DNA of 63,205 nt, counting the filler, from Basidiobolus ranarum (Eukaryota): the NCBI GenBank assembly GCA_040143965.1. It is 19 parts of 19 records of this genome, joined end to end, with 100 filler letters (N's around TTAATTAATTAA, not from the genome) between each part and the next. Parts side by side here need not be neighbours in the genome. Positions count along the whole stretch, not along the records: positions 59,984 to 63,205 come from JASJQH010009512.1; 18 more parts are not named here. The stretch is one strand, 5' to 3'. A program made the position numbers and the translations under genes. Positions 1 to 63,205 of this stretch are shown here, one piece after another (position 1 is the stretch's first letter; every line of letters starts with the position of its first letter). A model generated the notes under the pieces. That model had not been told where the DNA came from, ran no database searches, and saw only the letters and a list, made by a program, of their open reading frames with translations.

Positions 1-1383
1 TACACCTTCTCTTCAGATGCTCCAGTTAAATTAACTTGATAAGTTCTCATTCCAATGGCATCCAATATGTGGTCATCTCCCATGAAAACCTTTCTGATTG
101 AGATTTCTTCACAATCCACAAACCTATGTTTTTCATTTATGAAATATTGAGAAGCTCCAGAATCAATATATCTCATCTGAGAATCCTTGTTGTTAGTCAT
201 AGGTAGAGCAGATATGAACAAGTGATCTTCTGATGTAACCACATTTTCAGATTCACTATGTTTTTCTTGTTTTACAGTTCTTTTAAAGCAATCTTTGCTT
301 AAAATGCCAGTTCTTTTACAGTAATCATAGAATGTGTTATTTTTCTTCTTAAAGTGCTTTCTATCTTTATAGGTAGGTTTACCATAGCCTATTAAAGCAT
401 ATTCTTCTTTCTTTTGGTTGGATCTCAATATGCATAAATCTTCATCCCAAAGTCTGCCATATACAAGATTTAAGGTTAAATTTTTGGTTCTTGATTCTAG
501 AGCCATTACTAGGCTCTGAAACTCATGTGGCAGGCTATACAGGACTGTCACTATGATATTTTGATCAGTAGTAGGTACTCCAATGCATTCCATTTCAGCC
601 ACTAAAAGAGTCACTCTATTAATAAGTGATTTAATGTCTTTTCCTGGCTTCCCCTTTATGTTAAAAAATTGTCTTCTTGGAAGCATCTTGTGGACAGCAG
701 AACTTGTTTAGTAGATGTCTTCCAAGGCTTTCCATATATTCTTGGTAGTTTAATCTCTTGAACATTGAATCCACAATTTGTGTTTAACATTAAGACAAAT
801 TGTGTTAAAGGTACTTTGTTCTTTTTTAACCTGGAGTAAAGCTTTGGTTTCAGATAGTTTTGCATTGTTTCCTTCTCCTACAACAGTGTCCCAAAGTTCT
901 TTTTCTTGCAGCAGCATTTTCATTTTCATTTTCCAAACTTGATAATTGGTTTCATTCAATTTTTCAGAAGAGGGAAAAGTTCCATAAGTTTGAGAAGTAG
1001 ATATCAAGAGAGTTCAAGCTTGGGGCTCATAGCATGTTAAAGTATTTTGGAGCCTGTTAGAAGAGGTTTGGGAATTAGAGGAATTGGTGGTTTTTTACTT
1101 ATTGACTTACTGAGTAGAATGTTGACATTTATAGTTTTGTCCAGATATAGACAAACTAACATGTAGAATGCTGTAAGGAAGGTCCCAGCAACATGTGCAC
1201 AAAGTTTGGGTATTCTAGCACAAGTTGGAAAAAATCTATATATCTGAGAACTTGTAAGTTGGTAAAAACATTCTAAGTAAGTTCCAATTGAGAGTAATGG
1301 TTAATATCTTAGTGATTTATAAAACCACTAAGTACTGAGCTATGTATGACTATACAGGTGTTTAGGTAAAGCTAATATTGACA
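1..1383 (-). mobile_element. Degenerate Ty1/copia family 1, 5' part (5' LTR, PBS, gag, protease)
   Basis: Gag start EKLNETNYQVWKMKMKMLLQEKELW (750-1007), decayed zinc-knuckle and protease sequence towards position 1, LTR at 1035-1383; many stops and frameshifts. Confidence 0.92.
1035..1383 (-). repeat. LTR of copia family 1 (about 349 bp, TG...CA)
   Basis: Related copies at about 1790-2010, 3037-3241, 11142-11489, 14440-14789, 14799-15146, 15463-15810, 18110-18442, 26160-26604 and 34440-34640. Confidence 0.9.
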
Positions 1384-4597: not shown

Positions 4598-6582
4598 ATG
4601 ATAGAAAAATCCGTCAAGGCCGATAAGGTTCAGATCGAAGAGAATGAAGAGATCCTTAATAATAACCAAGAACAGAGTAGCAACTTGCCAGTAACTAGAA
4701 CCCTCACTGTCGAGTATCGTACACTCTCGGTCCGTCTCAGTGAAGCTCACACTCGGGAGACTAAGAAGGATAAGAATTTGGAAGAGGAACTTGCTATCGA
4801 TTATCACAAACTCAATTTACATGAGCTCAGTCTGCGTTTCAACACCTCGCTTGAAAATGGTTTAGATGTCGCCAATGCTGAGACCCGCTTAGCATCTCAT
4901 GGTAAAAATCAGATCTCTCCACCACCATCAAAGCTCCTTGCCAAGATCTTCGATTATTGTTTCGGTGGCTTCTGCGGTATTCTTTGGTTTGCTTCCTGCA
5001 TTTGCTTCATCTCTTGGAAGCCACTTGGTGACCCACCACAAGCTACAAATCTGGGTCTCGCCATCTTACTTTTACTGGTCATTTTTGTTCAAGCTGGATT
5101 CAACGCTTATCAGGATTGGAGTTCATCCAAGGTGATGAATTCTATCAATGGTATGTTGCCAGCAAATGCCTTGGTCAATCGTGGTGGTCAAAAGGTCAGA
5201 ATCCCGGTGAGTGACTTGGTTGTAGGAGACGTAGTGTACTTGTCATATGGTAACAAAGTACCAGCTGATGCACGTGTGATCAGTTGCTCAGATCTCAAAT
5301 TCGATAAATCTGTACTTACTGGTGAAAGTGACCCAATTGCTGCTACCATTGATATGACTGACGAGAATTACCTTGAGTCCAAGAATGTTGCACTTATGGG
5401 AACTTTGACCACCAATGGTGAAGGTGTTGGTGTCGTTGTTTCTACTGGTGACAGAACAGTCATGGGAAAGATCGCCAAGCTATCTAGTAATGCCGGTACC
5501 TCTAAGACTTTGTTGCAAATTGAAATCAGTCGATTTGTCAAGCTCATTGCCGCTATGTCTTTCACTACTGCTACTTTCGTGATGATTCTCTGGGCCGCTT
5601 GGTTACGTCGTTCATACCCCGGTTTTTTGAATCTTTCCAATGCCTTGGTAAATGCCATTGCAGTTCTTGTTGCTTTCGTTCCCGAAGGTCTTCCAGTGGC
5701 TGTCACTTTAACCCTTACTCTGATCGCTCGTCGTATGCAACAACAGAAGGTACTCGTCAAGAACTTGACTACAGTCGAAACTTTGGGATCAGTGAATGTC
5801 ATCGCTTCCGATAAGACCGGAACATTGACTCAGAATCGTATGTTTGTTAGTAGCGGTTTCGTAGGCCAACCTTTCAACATGAGCGAATGCAGAGATCACT
5901 ACACTGCCAAGATTGCCGGAGTATCCGAGTTGCTAGCAGTGTCAGGACTTTGTAATGGAGCTTCATTCGATAGTGAATCCATGAATCTTCCAGTGTCAGA
6001 GCGTAAGACTAATGGCGATGCCACTGACTCTGCTATCCTCCGATTTGCTGAAGACTACCGAATGATCAGTGAGCACAATTCCAAATTTGATAAACTCTTT
6101 GAGATTCCTTTCAACTCCAAGAACAAGTGGATGTTAACTGTCGCCAAGGGAAAGAGTACTGATAACGGATTCAGAACTGACAAGTCTGTGCTTATGCTCA
6201 AGGGTGCTCCTGACTTTATCCTAGGCAGATGTACACATATTCTCAACTTTGATGGTACTGAAAGTCCTTTTGACGAGGAAGCCAAAAACAGAGTTCTTCG
6301 TCAGCAAGAAGACTGGAGTTCAAATGGTCAACGTGTTCTTCTCTTGACTCGTAGATATTTAGAAGATGGTGAATTGGTAGATGGTATGAGCTCGGAAGAA
6401 GTGATCCCACTTGCAGAGAACATGTGCATTGTAGGACTTGTCGGTATCATTGATCCACCAAGACCTGAGATTTTCGATGTAGTACAAACCTGCCGTGGTG
6501 CTGGTATTCGTCTATTCATGGTCACCGGTGATTTCTCCCTCACTGCTGCTGCCATTGCCAGACAGGTTGGTATCTTCACCGC
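4598..6582 (+). CDS. P-type cation ATPase, Na,K/H,K-ATPase alpha-like (type IIC / fungal ACU-like), 3' truncated
   Basis: Intronless ORF with LTGES, VPEGLP, phosphorylation motif DKTGTLTQNRM, GDATDSA, EIPFNSKNKW, KGAP, DPPR and MVTGD; TATAAATA near 4508; runs into the linker. Confidence 0.93.
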
Positions 6583-6682
6583 NNNNNNNNNNNNNNNNNN
6601 NNNNNNNNNNNNNNNNNNNNNNNNNNTTAATTAATTAANNNNNNNNNNNNNNNNNNNNNNNNNNNNNNNNNNNNNNNNNNNN

Positions 6683-28170: not shown

Positions 28171-29937
28171 ATGGCGGAGGTTTGGTCTCTGGCTATGGCT
28201 TTCTTTTCTGGTGGCGCCTTTTTAACACCACTCATCTTTCTTACCATAACCTCATTATTCGTTTATTGGTGGCGAAGTCTTACTATTGACACTTCTCCAT
28301 CTTTAGCTACGCGTTTTGAGCCGTTATCAACTAACTTGGAGAAAGAGCCTCAAGAAAATGTTGTAACCTCTTGGAGCTCGAATTCAGGTTGGATACGTAT
28401 GTCAAAGGAGTTTAGAGTGGATCGTGAAGACTCGAATATCATCTCCGGTTTAATGATGCAAGGAATCAATAGCTTGATAGAAGGAAAACATGTGGGCCCA
28501 AAGCGACCAAAGGATTCCTATTTTGCAGTTCTCAAAAGTGAAACACTCTCACTATATGCTGACGAGAAGATGTTGGAACGTCAAGGGGTGATAACTCTTT
28601 CATTCTACAACGTCTCTCTCTATCCGTCGCATCTCCCAGATAATGAGGTTTTCCTGCCAGAACTACCCATCAGATTGAAGAAGAAAGTCGTAGAAGATTC
28701 CACGACAGAAGACGCGAAAAGTGACTATTACATTTTCATTAATACGCTCATTGAAAAAGAAGATTGGTTTTTCGCGTTGTGTAGAGCATCTAGATTGAAG
28801 CAGTGGGGAACCGCACATACTCTTTTCGACGAAAATCCGGCCAATTTCGAACCGACTGCAATGTTATTGCTGATAGAGAAGGTGCACTCAGATGAGCATC
28901 ATCGACAAACTCGATGGCTAAATGCATTTATTGGTCGAATATTCTTAGCAATATATAAAACTCAGGCTATCAAAGACTTCGTGACTCATAGGATACTGCT
29001 TAAATGCTCTAAGATCCCGCGTCCCTCATTCATCAAAGAATTGACTGTGAAGGATTTGCTACTTGGTGACAATGTTCCTTCAGTAACCCATCCGAAGCTA
29101 ATCGACTTGAACGCACTTGGAGAGATGAGTGCTGAGTTTAGAGTTCATTATAGCGGGGGGTTTGCTATAGAAATTGAGACTGCGTTGAATATTACGATGC
29201 CCCCATTCATCAACTCCCTCACCATACCAGTAAAGTTTGTGGTTCGAGTGAAAAGCTTGAAGGGTCGAATGCTACTTAAAATCAAGCCACCACCCACGAA
29301 TCGTCTTTGGCTTGGCTTCATAGATGATCCGAATATCTCCTTTGACATTGTACCCATTATTTCTGGTAAAGTCATACAATCCAAAGTAATTCTGAAAATC
29401 ATAGAGAGCCAGATTCGTACAGTGCTGAGAGAAGTCATGGTTTTGCCCAACATGGATGACACTGAATTTTTCCCATCTGAAGGATTGGGTGGGATATTTA
29501 ACTCTGCAGTAATCACCAAATTGCACCATGATGTGGCTCTACATCCTCAATCGGAAACTGAGGGAACGGAACATAGCACAATCAATCCCAATGAACTCAA
29601 GACTCCGACCAAGATGTTTGAATATCATATACCTGGTTATGACCATAACTCGGACCACAGTGAAGAGGAAAACGCTCCGGAATTTGATGAAAGCTCATTG
29701 ATAGCCCCTCAAATGCCACTAGAGATCCCGTTTAAAGATCCTTCAGAACTTACCGTCCCCGAAAAAAGTCACACAACCCCTGCTGTAGCTAGCTCTTCAA
29801 CTACAGATCTCACACCTAGACTTACCCCATCTAATACTGACGCGGGAAAAAGGAAATCCACCGATGACTTCATTCTAGAAGGAGGACTTCCTAACGTACC
29901 AGCTGTATCACGCGGGTACGCTATGGCTAAAAATACT
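28171..29937 (+). CDS. NVJ2: PH + SMP domain lipid-transfer protein, Nvj2/TEX2-like, 3' truncated
   Basis: N-terminal transmembrane segment, PH-like region (YFAVLK...EKEDWFFAL), SMP motifs WLNAFIGRIFL, KPPPTNRLWLGF and VMVLPNMDD. Confidence 0.88.
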
Positions 29938-30037
29938 NNNNNNNNNNNNNNNNNNNNNNNNNNNNNNNNNNNNNNNNNNNNTTAATTAATTAANNNNNNN
30001 NNNNNNNNNNNNNNNNNNNNNNNNNNNNNNNNNNNNN

Positions 30038-35797: not shown

Positions 35798-36601
35798 ATG
35801 ATCTTCTCTAAGTCTTCTCTTCCTTGCTTCGCACTATTAGCGCTTGCTCCCTATGCTCTTGGGCATATGGAGATGGTTCAACCTCCCCCTCGTCAATCTC
35901 AGTATAATCCCACTTATAAAGGAACACCGGACTATGACATGTCTGCTCCGTTGGAAGATGGCCAATGGCCTTTTCCCTGCCGTGGTTTTGGGAGAGGTGG
36001 GATTGTTCAAACAGTCCAAGCTGGAAGTAGCATCCCGGTCAAGCTTGGCGGTGGTGCTCCTCACTATGGGGGACATTGCCAATTTGCCCTTTCTTATGAT
36101 GACAAAACTTTTGTCGTACTCAAGGATGTGTTTGATGATTGCTTAATTGCATCTCGTGAATACAGTATTCAGATTCCAGCTGGAGCACCTAGTGGTCGGG
36201 CGACTTTTGCTTGGGCTTGGATTAACAAGACTGGTAATCGGGAGTACTACATGAATTGTGCTGATATTCAAATTCAAGGTAGCCCATCGGGCTCCGTTAC
36301 TGGGCCCAAACTTTTGATAGCTAATCTTCCTGGATATGTAACCATTCCTGAATTTACCAGCGGTGGTTACAGTGGCAAGGATTTGTTTCCCAAGAGACCA
36401 ATTGTGAAAATAACTGGAAATGGAAGTAAGGTAGTTGCACCCGAGCCCTCAGCTCAAGAACCTACTGAACCAACTACCAATCCCACTAAGTCAACCCCTG
36501 TTATCGAGTCCACCGTACCAACAGTTACTCCTAAACCTGCCGAGCCTTCTACTCCTAAGCCCGCGGATAAGCCTATTTCACCTCCCGCTAATAACAATGC
36601 C
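35798..36601 (+). CDS. Lytic polysaccharide monooxygenase, AA11-like, with Pro/Thr linker, 3' truncated
   Basis: Signal peptide followed directly by His (ALG-HMEM), FPCRG, GGAPHYGGHCQFALSYD, GNREYYMNCADI, then a P/T/S-rich linker. Confidence 0.9.
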
Positions 36602-36701
36602 NNNNNNNNNNNNNNNNNNNNNNNNNNNNNNNNNNNNNNNNNNNNTTAATTAATTAANNNNNNNNNNNNNNNNNNNNNNNNNNNNNNNNNNNNNNNNNNN
36701 N

Positions 36702-46686: not shown

Positions 46687-47935
46687 ACCCGATTCGTCCT
46701 CTGCTGGTAACGGACGGGTCTGCCGCCTGTTGGGGGAAAGGGGTTGGTTCAGTGGCCAGTGGCCGATGAGTCCATCTGACCTTTCAGTATGAGATAAGAT
46801 GCGACATGATTGAGGTCTTGGATCTGGCTTCCCGTCCAACAGAAAAGGTCGTAGCTGACAATAAAGGCTGTTATCGATCTCCATGATTACGTTCTCATCT
46901 ATGTCTTTCATCAGGTTTTTGTTGGCAGCGGACTCCCAGATATGAGTGCCGAGGTTGGCAGAGAAATCATATGTCTTTTCAAGATACAAAGTGCGCAAAC
47001 CCTCACTATCCCATAGGGGCCAGAAATATGCAGAGTGATTTAAAACAGTGATTTCGTTTGAGAAATATGGAGCCAATTTTCCTGGCAGGACCACAGAATG
47101 ATAATTCCAGTCACCATCGAAGGATCTATACGTCTGATACCATCTTTGAATAAAGTTGGAATGAGGCCTAGCCATCATCATAGCATTACATAAGCCTACT
47201 GAACCATCTAACCGAGGCAAAAGAAAGTATTAAATAAACGAAAACCTTTAAAAAAAAGCCAAATGTAACGTTACCTACACCTTCCTGAGCCATAACGAAC
47301 TCACGATCAAGCAAATGATCTATTGGCTTTAAGGAAATCAAATCGAGGTCCAAATAGATTCCACCATATTCCTCCAAAACTTGCAAACGAACAACGTCGG
47401 CCTTATGAGCATAATGTTGTACTGGCCTATCGAAAACATTCTGCACCATAGGCACTTTGTGTAACGTGAGCATAGGACGTGCTCTCTCAAAATTGGCACC
47501 CACGGGCAAATGGTGGTAGTGAAACATGATCTTGTCTGGTTTCAAGACGTCATGCGCTGATTTGATTGCAATGTAGTGGATTAGGTCGAGTGTCGGGTTG
47601 GGATCTCTTAATCCATATATGAAGTGCACAACTTTGGGAATACGAGCACCCACCGGAACAAGGTCGGTTTCACGGGCGATCTTCAGTTCTTTCAAGCCTT
47701 TGGCATTGTCTGATGATGGCCAGTCTAATGTAATCTCTAACCATTTTGAAGTTGTCTGAGTGCTAGTGAATGAATTGGATTTGAAGATTGCGAATGGGTT
47801 AAACCAGTAGAGTAAGAAGAATAGAGTTACTGTGATCAATGCGCCTCTCATCAATATCCTCCTTCTCTGCTTTGGTGACTTCTTTGAATAAGTCTTATAA
47901 AAAGGCAATTTGCTGTCACTTTTTTTGTTGAGCAT
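46687..47935 (-). CDS. Type II membrane GT32 (DXD) glycosyltransferase, intron at 47208-47274, 3' truncated
   Basis: Basic tail plus transmembrane segment, IPKVVHF, AHKADVVRL...YGGIYLDLD; a GTAACG...TAG intron joins QEGV-D-GSVGLCNA; GLIGHWPL near the edge suggests a following LamG-like domain. Confidence 0.9.
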
Positions 47936-59883: not shown

Positions 59884-59983
59884 NNNNNNNNNNNNNNNNN
59901 NNNNNNNNNNNNNNNNNNNNNNNNNNNTTAATTAATTAANNNNNNNNNNNNNNNNNNNNNNNNNNNNNNNNNNNNNNNNNNNN

Positions 59984-60564
59984 GCTTTAATCCCTAAAAG
60001 ATTCAATTTTGCTACAATACCGCTACAGCATCCGTCGACACCATTACATCCTCCATTACAACAAACATTACCTCCACCGTTATTGACACCATAGATGCTA
60101 CCATTTCCTCCACCATTATTACCACCATTGACTCCACCGTTATTTCATCCTGTGTTGCCACCATTTCCTCCACCGTTATTACCACCATTGCCTCCACCGT
60201 TATTACCACCAGTGTTGCCACCAGTACCTCCACCGTTATTACCACCATTGCCTCCACTGTTATTACCACCGCCGGTACCACCACCTAGACAGATCTTTGC
60301 ATCCACATTAATTCCGAGAGCCTTTGCACTAGCGACCAGTTCTGGACAGTCCATGCTTCCAGGATTCTTTCCCCCACCATTATTTCCGCCATTGCCAATG
60401 CAAACTTTAGTATCAATATCGGCGCCCAATAAGTTCAATTTGGCGACAATCCCACGGCAATAACCATCACCAGTCTTTGATTTATAAAAAGTGGGTGCAG
60501 CAGATGTTCCTGTCAGTAAGGCGATAGTAGAGAATAAAAGGATGGCTCTAGAATGGAACAACAT
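59984..60564 (-). CDS. Secreted C-x18-C repeat protein with Gly/Asn spacers, paralog 2; in-frame TGA at 60145-60147; 3' truncated
   Basis: Signal peptide, two complete C-x18-C modules, GGNNGG tract; the frame continues past the TGA to a third module start CSGIVAKLNLLGIK; TATAAATA upstream near 60745. Confidence 0.8.
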
Positions 60565-60647
60565 TTTTCAAGTTGGATAAAAGAAAGTTTCGAGTAGTTC
60601 AGAATTTGTTTGGTGATTAGGAAATTGAATAGATGTGATTAAATGAT

Positions 60648-60720
60648 TATAAATAAATAAATATGAACTGAATTGAATGGAATGGAATGAATGGAATGGA
60701 ATGAATTGATTGATTGATTT
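60648..60720. repeat. Compound microsatellite (TAAA)n(GAATG)n(GATT)n in the 5' leader region
   Basis: Directly visible between the TATA box and the ATG of the 60564 gene. Confidence 0.8.
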
Positions 60721-61473
60721 GTGAAGATCCGGGTGTGGCTCCAGTATTTATAGTTTACTTCTCAGGGGGGAGGAAAAGTATTAAAATGATCAAGCTAGTC
60801 TAAGGCTGGCTAGAAACGAAGAATCGCTTAGGAATCGCTTTCCCATCCACCTGCTAACCTCGCAGTTTGCATAAGTTGATTGAATCAACCGAATATGGTA
60901 ATCTTTGAAATCTCCCTACCGCTGCTAAATTCTCCTAGAAATCAATTACATCTCTACTAGTGTTAAACTAGAACGAAAGGGCGGCTCTCCTGAACCACTA
61001 ATGCAGAGAGTTTAATCATATCAATACTAATGGTTTGTCACATTCCCTTTCATTCATGTTGTTGTATGCAGTATTCGAGGAACACTCGATCCCTTAATTC
61101 TGCTTTACATACTAGCAAGTACGATCGACAGGGACACTCTTGTGCGAACGGTTTATGTACATTAGCCTTAGTATGGTAGCTATATATGTACACTGCTACT
61201 ATCTATTTAAGTATCATGTTACTAGTTGCGACCTTTCTATATTAGTATAATATCACTATTTGCGACTAAATTGCTTTCTAAATATCTCTAGATAAGGATT
61301 GAATCGTTGTTTATTTGGGATATATATATTCTAAGATGGGTTAAGCAAAGACAAATGAAAAAATGGCATTGGGAATGGTGGTGAAAATGGTATGAATAAT
61401 TTCTGATGCAGGATAATGCAGTTCTTAAGGGTGTTTTCTAACACTAGCATTAAGTGCGATCTGATTGTTGAGA

Positions 61474-62520
61474 CTAGTTACGACCTCCTAAGCATACATT
61501 AGCATTGATTTGGAGACCTAAAATATTGGCGTCAGCTACAATATCTGGACATCTGTTCCCACCTCTCATACGTGGAACTACTTGCTGATTGCTTCCTCCG
61601 TTGAGACAAACATCAAGATTAACTCTGATTCCTAGAACATTTAACCTGGCAACTACTCCTCGACAAGCGTCACCTCTAGTGATACGACCGTTCCGGCCAC
61701 CATCTCCGTTATTTCCACTTAAGCAAACATCAGCATTGACTTGGATTCCTAGTATGTTGGCGTCGGCAACGATGTCGGGGCAAGTGTTTCTACCAGAAAG
61801 GGGTCTATTTCTACCTCTATTAGCTCTACCCCCCAAACATACATCAGCATCAACTTTAATACCCAAAAGGTCCAACTTGGCAACAATATCAGGACAAGCA
61901 CGATTCCTATTGTTGTCACGAAGATTACCACCTCGATTACCATTATTTCCGTTTCCTCCGAGACAGATGCTAGCATCAAGTTTAATTCCAAGTATATTTG
62001 CGTCAGCAACAATATCAGGACAGGTTCCACCACCATTACGTCCTCTGTTACGACCCAAGTCTCTGTCAATACCTCTGCCATTGTCTCTGTCTCCACCGCC
62101 TAAGCATATGTCAACATCTGCTTTGAGTCCTAGAGCATTCAATCTAGCAATGATATCGTTACAGCCTTCATTTCTACGGCCTCGATCCTCTCCTCTGCCC
62201 CTACCTCTGCCACGGCCGTCATTGCCTGGATTATTACCAAGACAGATATTTGCATTCACATTGATTCCCAAAATATTGGCATCCACAACAACATCTGGGC
62301 AGTCCATATTCCTAGGGTTGCGTCCCCTTGAATCTCTTCCATCCTTTCCGATGCACACTTCAGCATTAATATTAGCACCAAAGACGTTCAATCTAGCTAC
62401 GATTCCATGGCAATAATCGTCACCATGATCACCCCTAAAGCGAGAAGGAGCAGCAATTGTCCCGGTCAAAAGAGACAATCCAGAAATAAGGAGTAGAGCT
62501 TGAGAGTAAAATGGTAGCAT
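61474..62520 (-). CDS. Secreted 348-aa protein with eight C-x18-C amphipathic modules and Gly/Arg/Asn spacers
   Basis: Complete intronless ORF; signal peptide MLPFYSQALLLISGLSLLTGTIA; 16 Cys in 8 pairs; TATAAATA about 70 nt upstream. Confidence 0.92.
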   Translation of the reverse strand: MLPFYSQALLLISGLSLLTGTIAAPSRFRGDHGDDYCHGIVARLNVFGANINAEVCIGKDGRDSRGRNPRNMDCPDVVVDANILGINVNANICLGNNPGNDGRGRGRGRGEDRGRRNEGCNDIIARLNALGLKADVDICLGGGDRDNGRGIDRDLGRNRGRNGGGTCPDIVADANILGIKLDASICLGGNGNNGNRGGNLRDNNRNRACPDIVAKLDLLGIKVDADVCLGGRANRGRNRPLSGRNTCPDIVADANILGIQVNADVCLSGNNGDGGRNGRITRGDACRGVVARLNVLGIRVNLDVCLNGGSNQQVVPRMRGGNRCPDIVADANILGLQINANVCLGGRN

Positions 62521-63205
62521 TGTTCAGGGATTGGTATGGATTTCTATAAGAAACAACTTTGATGCTATTGAATAGAACATGGGAAGCTTATTTATAGAAG
62601 ACATTAAACCAGATTGGTAAGGACATGCAAGAATGTCGGATGCAACCTAACCAAATGGAGTGTTCTGCAATGTCAACCCACGATCTAGTGAAACTTCTTA
62701 ATTATGGATGAATCAATGGATCTGATGACGAATTCCTCATTGATCTTCATAACTGGTGGAAGAGCTTAGTCTTTTCACGTTATTGGATCTTGATACCTGC
62801 ATCAATCACCCTGCCTCAACACGTTGGTATGCTTCAGAGTAGCTATGGCTCTAGCTAGCATACGAAGCATCTTACTCGTTTTTACTTGCACACGTTATTA
62901 AAGCGTGACTCTTGTGCAGGGTTTCTAGTTTATTGACTATACTTGCTATAATCTTAACTCCCTGAACAAGGAGGACACTAGAATTGGTTCCAGGTCACGT
63001 ACAGGAGTGTTAGACGAGAGTTAAAGCTAGGTTCCTTTCTCTTTCTCAATTAATAATCCGTACCTTTAAATTTTTAGGTAGAAAGATCAGACTAAGTTAT
63101 CTTTTCTTGAACAGCAGAACTTAAGCAAGAATACATGTTTAATCTAACAGAGTGTTATGTAGATTTTTGGATTTGCGAAAATAAGTAGCAATGTACGACC
63201 ACGGC

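Follow-up and report, generated by a model that had tools for sequence, protein, structure and literature searches.

A family of secreted proteins built from paired C-x18-C modules, apparently restricted to Basidiobolus: candidates for a coat or glue system

The window analysed here, a stretch of 63,205 nucleotides from Basidiobolus ranarum, is interrupted at 18 sites, about every 3330 bases, by joints (for example at 59884-59983) of the form N44, a 12-base stop spacer and N44. These spacers join length-sorted contigs of ~3.2 kb, so the real context of the gene studied, P0001, is only 59984-63205 (G000:C9512), and neighborhoods across the joints are artefactual. On this contig, an intronless ORF on the minus strand encodes P0001, a protein of 348 aa with 16 Cys, and a tandem paralog lies 909 nt downstream (Table 1). 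The paralog ends at an in-frame TGA (60145-60147, minus strand) within a Gly/Asn repeat, which is either a nonsense allele or an assembly error. The original observation, made from the window alone, was borne out for P0001 itself but overlooked both the neighboring paralog and the large family of which the two genes are members.

Table 1. Features of the P0001 locus, in coordinates of the window.
Feature	Position	Strand	Basis
TATA box TATAAATA, starts 76 nt 5' of P0001 ATG	62589..62596	-	
CDS P0001: signal peptide, N-type A+B unit and three internal A+B units, without capping strand	61474..62520	-	
Signal peptide, ~aa 1-23	62452..62520	-	by eye; paralogs
Module A1, aa 37-56	62353..62412	-	
Module B1, aa 74-93	62242..62301	-	
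Module A2, aa 120-139	62104..62163	-	
Module B2, aa 167-186	61963..62022	-	
Module A3, aa 209-228	61837..61896	-	
Module B3, aa 247-266	61723..61782	-	
Module A4, aa 286-305	61606..61665	-	
Module B4, aa 324-343	61492..61551	-	
TATAAATA box, starts 188 nt 5' of paralog ATG	60745..60752	-	
Tandem paralog with 139 aa, comprising a signal peptide, a single A+B unit and a Gly/Asn tract; in-frame TGA end	60145..60564	-	
Paralog's two modules	60400-60459 and 60289-60348	-	
Paralog frame past the TGA: further Gly/Asn repeat and start of a third module, truncated at contig end	59984..60144	-	

The signal peptide of P0001 is likely cleaved before Ala-Pro, at the same site as in its paralogs. It is followed by eight modules of exactly C-x18-C, as had been described, and the module pattern matched eight times in the protein compared with at most two times in 100,000 composition-preserving shuffles. 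Position 12 is Gly in all eight modules, and residues 11-12 are LG in seven and FG in module 1, in agreement with the turn residues originally named. Positions 6-9 read, in order, ARLN, VDAN, ARLN, ADAN, AKLD, ADAN, ARLN and ADAN, and from this order it follows that two module types, A and B, strictly alternate; the proposed distinction between odd modules with A[RK]L[ND] and even modules with [AV]DAN therefore holds without exception. Position 7 is R/K in 4/4 A and D in 4/4 B modules, and position 9 is Asn in 7/8. The seven spacers total 147 aa (42 Gly, 32 Arg, 26 Asn and 12 Asp), and the net charge is +19 for the spacers and -10 for the modules. All gaps between Cys residues measure 17-27 residues with no CC pairs, dibasic sites amount to one RR and no KR, and the chain stops five residues after B4. 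Two RGD triplets are also present where ~0.6 would be expected by a hand estimate, but given the composition of P0001 they are not taken as meaningful.

P0001 is a real, conserved gene, which confirms the initial observation. When its modules were compared among themselves, pN and pS were 0.27 and 0.75 for A modules and 0.13 and 0.85 for B modules; P0001 is under strong purifying selection, with synonymous sites near or at saturation and amino acids kept. A second copy of the two-gene locus (L005; G000:C12105, 67-1425) has 89% identity, with intergenic DNA 93% identical, and is a duplicated or homeologous locus; the paralog and its copy there gave a dN/dS of 0.08. Boxes of the TATAAATA type lie 40-250 nt upstream of 13/31 family starts relative to 38/494 background windows, where the family starts were picked automatically, include two false starts and do not include P0001. 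It is hardly credible that P0001 is an artefact or a dead gene, whether a low-complexity ORF, a mis-assembly or a pseudogene. The assembly is fragmented (13,754 contigs), the adjacent paralog has an in-frame TGA and stops occur inside several family matches, all of which would fit such a reading; however, the 348-codon ORF is intact and passed the shuffle test, a TATA box is present, its modules are under purifying selection, and beyond the second locus copy there are homologs in another species.

The A+B pair is supported as the true repeat unit, a domain of ~60 aa with four invariant Cys, as was originally proposed. Parity was assigned automatically and can slip in the following counts: A-to-B linkers are 16-24 aa long in 130/144 cases, B-to-A linkers range from 8 to 177 aa and exceed 30 aa in 26/81, and a leave-similar-out profile classification placed 96/120 A and 102/120 B modules correctly. 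The A-to-B spacers also end in a motif shared across the family. The earlier description of the spacers as disordered tracts thus stands for their Gly/Arg/Asn/Asp-rich composition and single RR, but not for the A-to-B spacers, which are constrained in length and end motif. Units are found in pure tandem arrays of up to eight, at one or both ends of tracts with 51-58% Gly or 24-36% Pro, and as a stand-alone domain in secreted proteins of ~110 aa (107-125 aa), of which there are a dozen intact paralogs.

In a tree of 74 units and 64 columns with many open forks, N-terminal units taken from different genes cluster with one another and not with the later units of their own genes (support 88/98, not starred). 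The N-terminal label changed twice on the tree compared with at least 14 times in 200 shuffles, in a set of 60 rows from which single-domain proteins and duplicate rows were excluded. C-terminal units, most of which have an extra strand, form a starred clade with the single-domain proteins (98/91). Units group by chain position into N-terminal, internal and strand-capped C-terminal classes; P0001 consists of one N-unit and three internal units, without the capping beta-strand with which P0002, P0003 and the L010 gene end. Modules contain 0% Trp and 0.3% Tyr, a low content unlike that of typical sugar-binding modules.

Several other features of family genes were observed. They occur in tandem clusters of two to four per contig and are apparently all intronless (L003, L010, L030, L037, L044, L059, L065). 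A Pro-rich subfamily (L034, L035, L037, L039, L045) has CxxC in its linkers and extra Cys within modules, which could make intermolecular cross-links. Two genes of L059 (403-1497 and 4050-6155, minus strand) encode one N-unit followed by long His/Gly/Lys/Asp-rich tracts of up to ~580 aa, possibly metal-binding or hydrogel-like.

A search of the B. ranarum assembly (G000) with P0001 gave 95 matches, and at least 79 distinct contigs were matched over four single-protein searches (E up to 0.001); these totals are not gene counts, because fragments and duplicates are included. In word-indexed public searches, Basidiobolus accounted for 6/6, 13/13 and 16/16 matches, and one public match, named B. 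ranarum, was identical to an ORF of the assembly. A profile search, which the original prediction had put forward as a check, was run with 66 units against 1.84 billion representatives and returned 39 matches, 37 of them with the module. Twenty-four of these are named Basidiobolus, and the other 13 match ORFs of the B. ranarum assembly by eye, two of them confirmed at 100%. The two matches without the module, P0048 and P0050, are unrelated repeats and were dropped. Because the range covers two species and the 63-position profile has limited reach, the restriction to Basidiobolus holds within these searches. Among metagenome contigs, 71 pattern matches were found and none was confirmed. Within the searches run, the family is apparently undescribed and restricted to the genus. 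A literature search, mostly without subscription journals, found no account of this Basidiobolus family; the secretome orthogroup tables of PMC9391592 may include it, and PMC13370150 cites work from 2026 that presents 19 new genomes of Basidiobolus.

The family had not been recognized at first reading, and Pfam, fold and literature searches likewise returned no characterized match. In Pfam, P0001 and its paralog had no hits at E up to 10, eight relatives had scattered weak hits only, and the 66 units weakly matched six families, each in at most nine members. One match, Urease_alpha on P0009, scored 24.7 bits relative to a cut-off of 23 but was rejected, as the score was summed over repeats with no passing stretch. 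P0010 bears the precomputed Pfam accession PF28059, an entry that may denote either this family or some tract of P0010.

Hydrophobins (PF01185 and PF06766) are likewise secreted, Cys-rich, aliphatic, multi-copy fungal proteins, and their small secreted size (a domain of ~100 aa) is matched by the single-domain relatives, while P0001 itself is a 348-aa array. The hydrophobin fold is a beta-barrel, and its eight-Cys pattern includes two CC pairs. The P0001 family lacks this eight-Cys/CC pattern and has four Cys per unit, consistent with the original remark that CC pairs are missing. Its predicted structures, of moderate confidence, are helical or alpha/beta. Pfam hydrophobin models found no match in the 2 proteins, the 8 relatives or the 66 units; against the B. 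ranarum assembly they gave 0 matches, a result that is uninformative because control searches were silent too. Since both the Cys pattern and the Pfam tests fail, P0001 is not a hydrophobin; that pattern is described as strictly conserved in the part of the hydrophobin survey cited here (10.1101/2022.08.19.504535). By analogy, the family may nevertheless act like hydrophobins at surfaces. In UniRef, six B. meristosporus relatives are labeled 'Hydrophobin', all of which are hypothetical proteins at NCBI. These labels are unsupported and look automatic; UniRef also gives P0011 the name of a xylose-isomerase-like TIM barrel.

Other known systems resemble the family in part. Minicollagens and spidroins are cross-linked, modular proteins of biomaterials in which folded end domains enclose Gly/Pro tracts. 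Distinct small N- and C-terminal domains similarly flank low-complexity chains in this family, and some of its Pro-rich members have additional Cys and CxxC, but no sequence relation to minicollagens or spidroins was found, and the end domains here are homologous to each other and to internal repeats. SAP, HeH, Ish1 and Rho-N are helix-extended-helix motifs, which share with the modules an amphipathic helix ending in x-Gly-hydrophobic and, in some members, a short capping segment before it. The family is Cys-bounded and secreted, in contrast to these motifs, and their Pfam models matched 0/66 units at E up to 0.5.

Structure prediction, also put forward originally as a check, was run on an A+B unit and on a single-domain paralog. 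AlphaFold modeled unit 3 of P0001 (66 sequences) with helices at 2-12 and 41-50 (pLDDT 74, pTM 0.56), short helices near each module's second Cys and no strands. The single-domain paralog was predicted as alpha-beta-alpha-beta-beta (core pLDDT ~76-86, pTM 0.57), with pLDDT below 45 in 3/5 models. In both models the first half of each module is an alpha-helix; they differ in the second half, which is a short helix in P0001 unit 3 versus a strand in the paralog. Of 240 modules, none has a polar residue at position 4 or 8 and 43 have a charged residue at 6 or 10; the top covarying pair across the unit is A6-A10. In the first half of the module, a periodicity of 170-180 degrees is as strong as the 100-110 degree signal, whereas the second half is a pure alternation of hydrophobic and polar residues; Chou-Fasman averages are equal (alpha 1.14, beta 1.16). 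The top two covarying pairs within the module, 5-18 and 6-17, match the register expected for a two-residue turn at Leu-Gly and recur in both A and B, in an analysis run without a phylogenetic null; they also fit a strand folding back on a helix. A helix-Gly-strand module is favored by the two models and by the polarity pattern of the family over a beta-hairpin, which is the less likely fold. The two strands per module originally proposed agree with the alternating periodicity but are an interpretation, as the first half also has helical periodicity; the proposed hairpins fit that periodicity and pairs 5-18 and 6-17, while the AlphaFold helices and the polarity of positions 4/8 versus 6/10 speak against them. 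Because beta periodicity and covariation compete with the helix signals, the modules of P0001 are ambivalent, and a helix-to-beta switch is still conceivable. The fold-back geometry, together with one isolated C-x16-C module of P0004, leads us to infer a Cys1-Cys20 disulfide within each module. No PDB match was found for the domain and the ESM Atlas gave no feature hits. A two-copy complex prediction of one A+B unit, in which the alignment was not used, scored 0.00, which counts neither for nor against association.

This ambivalence bears on a form of the mechanism first proposed, in which disulfide-closed beta-hairpins or beta-arches, either native or formed by switching, would assemble, with A stacked on B, as a functional amyloid or a rodlet-like film; we regard it as unlikely. 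Hydrophobic residues at 4/6/8/10 and 13/15/17/19, with the strong 170-180 degree periodicity, the covarying pairs in turn register, the opposite charges at position 7 and the Asn at position 9 of P0001 would all suit such stacking, and several nearest neighbors of a low-confidence Atlas model are beta-barrels, although these matches are weak (TM at most 0.39). Amyloids of the HET-s type form a solenoid of two pseudo-repeats with a flexible loop and complementary charges at matching positions. The A+B unit recalls them in its two ~20-residue pseudo-repeats and ~18-residue flexible loop, and in P0001 one matching position is oppositely charged (position 7, in 4/4 units) alongside the conserved Asn. 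However, the P0001 family is secreted, Cys-bounded and predicted to be helical, and charge complementarity is not family-wide: position 7 of A and B carries opposite charge in 10/38 units and like charge in 5/38, and positions 16 and 18 are like-charged in 12/38 and 10/38 units. Stacked hairpins are further disfavored by the helices of both AlphaFold models and by charge at position 6 or 10 but never at 4 or 8, and the same contacts fit a helix-packed strand.

Based on family architecture and on analogy, we put at about even the chance that these proteins are a lineage-specific, self-assembling coat, wall matrix or glue family, in line with the surface coat or adhesive originally suggested. 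P0001 and its relatives would be secreted and each module then oxidized. The module is predicted, with moderate confidence, to consist of an amphipathic helix over positions 1-11, capped by Gly at position 12, and of a segment, extended or beta, that folds back along the helix, and A and B are predicted, at similar confidence, to pack together as one small domain, the aliphatic face of which would drive self-association or surface binding. End domains would be supplied by N-type and strand-capped C-type units, while tracts rich in Gly, Pro or charged residues would provide flexible linkage. Uncapped P0001, with cationic Arg/Gly linkers between acidic modules, would suit an open-ended multivalent adhesive. 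Candidate sites are the capilliconidial adhesive, the conidial wall or the zygospore wall; in the Basidiobolaceae, capilliconidia bear adhesive material and zygospores are thick-walled, according to PMC13370150. A more far-reaching version is possible but rather doubtful: Basidiobolus would have evolved, independently, its own coat and glue system, equivalent to hydrophobins in its job, with a so far undescribed, disulfide-closed A+B domain that is secreted in helical form and turns beta-rich at interfaces, a grammar of N-, internal and strand-capped C-units, joined by exchangeable linkers of Gly, Pro or Arg, that tunes the material, and the uncapped, Arg-rich P0001 as a polymerizing adhesive component such as one of the capilliconidial glue.

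The A+B domain could instead be a soluble binding module, such as an enzyme inhibitor, a lipid or membrane binder, an antimicrobial or a host-interacting effector suited to living on arthropods and in the guts of amphibians and reptiles, in which arrays add avidity only; we think this improbable. The dozen single-domain secreted paralogs, the compact alpha/beta model of one of them and the large lineage-specific expansion are consistent with such a role, as is the biology of Basidiobolus, a herptile gut symbiont dispersed by insects (PMC9391592); for the secreted members with a single domain, a binding or effector role is as good a fit as a structural one. On the other hand, purifying selection is strong and B modules are near-identical despite saturated synonymous sites, which is not what a diversifying effector or inhibitor loop would show; low-complexity sequence rich in Gly or Pro makes up most of the chain in many members, and Pfam scans matched no inhibitor, lectin or toxin family. 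It is very unlikely that P0001 is a polyprotein from which Kex2-like or monobasic cleavage releases Cys-cyclized 20-mers or A+B units, as in Ustilago Rep1 and other KEPs; the cleavage into cyclic peptides offered by the original prediction is not supported. The likeness lies in the signal peptide and tandem amphipathic repeats, the Arg-rich spacers (32/147 aa) and KR or RR between units of some paralogs (P0009 has one KR and three RR). According to PMC7329392, Rep1 peptides are water repellents and B. meristosporus tops the KEP count among 1461 strains. The family lacks regular dibasic sites, however: apart from the single RR of P0001, P0012 has neither KR nor RR, and P0002 and P0003 have one KR each, directly after the signal peptide. 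Its repeats are also Cys-bounded, paired into a domain and found as stand-alone genes, and 0/25 family accessions (P0010 not among the 25) are among the 43 B. meristosporus KEPs of Table S2 of PMC7329392. Because dibasic sites are lacking and these accessions are absent, P0001 is not a KEP, although it may function like one, and the length constraint on the A-to-B linker speaks against single modules being released. Apart from the two family ORFs, nothing notable lies on the 3.2-kb contig, too short a stretch to judge the presence of a DUF3328 neighbor, a trait of RiPP-type KEPs.

A self-assembling coat or glue family would be of interest as the spore coat and glue proteins of early-diverging fungi are largely unidentified. 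In the sections cited here, the hydrophobin survey (10.1101/2022.08.19.504535) lists candidates in one of six Zoopagomycota genomes with Basidiobolus unmentioned, and PMC8588673 states that the nature of the Entomophthora adhesive is undetermined. The family supplies concrete, intronless and easily expressed candidates for such roles, built on a small domain for which these searches gave neither a sequence nor a fold match. Its single, dumbbell and array forms, capped or uncapped, offer a natural series for studying assembly, and a genus-restricted secreted family could be a diagnostic marker. Should the family turn out to be no more than a lineage-specific binding protein, it would still add a new domain family and illustrate how automatic 'Hydrophobin' labels can mislead.

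Elsewhere in the window, a secreted ORF (35798-36649, plus strand) has a His right after the signal peptide and a Pro/Thr linker at its end, and by its motifs it looks like a lytic polysaccharide monooxygenase. Judged in the same way, the other loci presumably encode a P-type ATPase (4598-6634, plus strand), an SMP-type lipid-transfer protein (28171-29985, plus strand), a DXD glycosyltransferase (47186-47935, minus strand) and a copia-like gag-pol fragment (3-686, minus strand).
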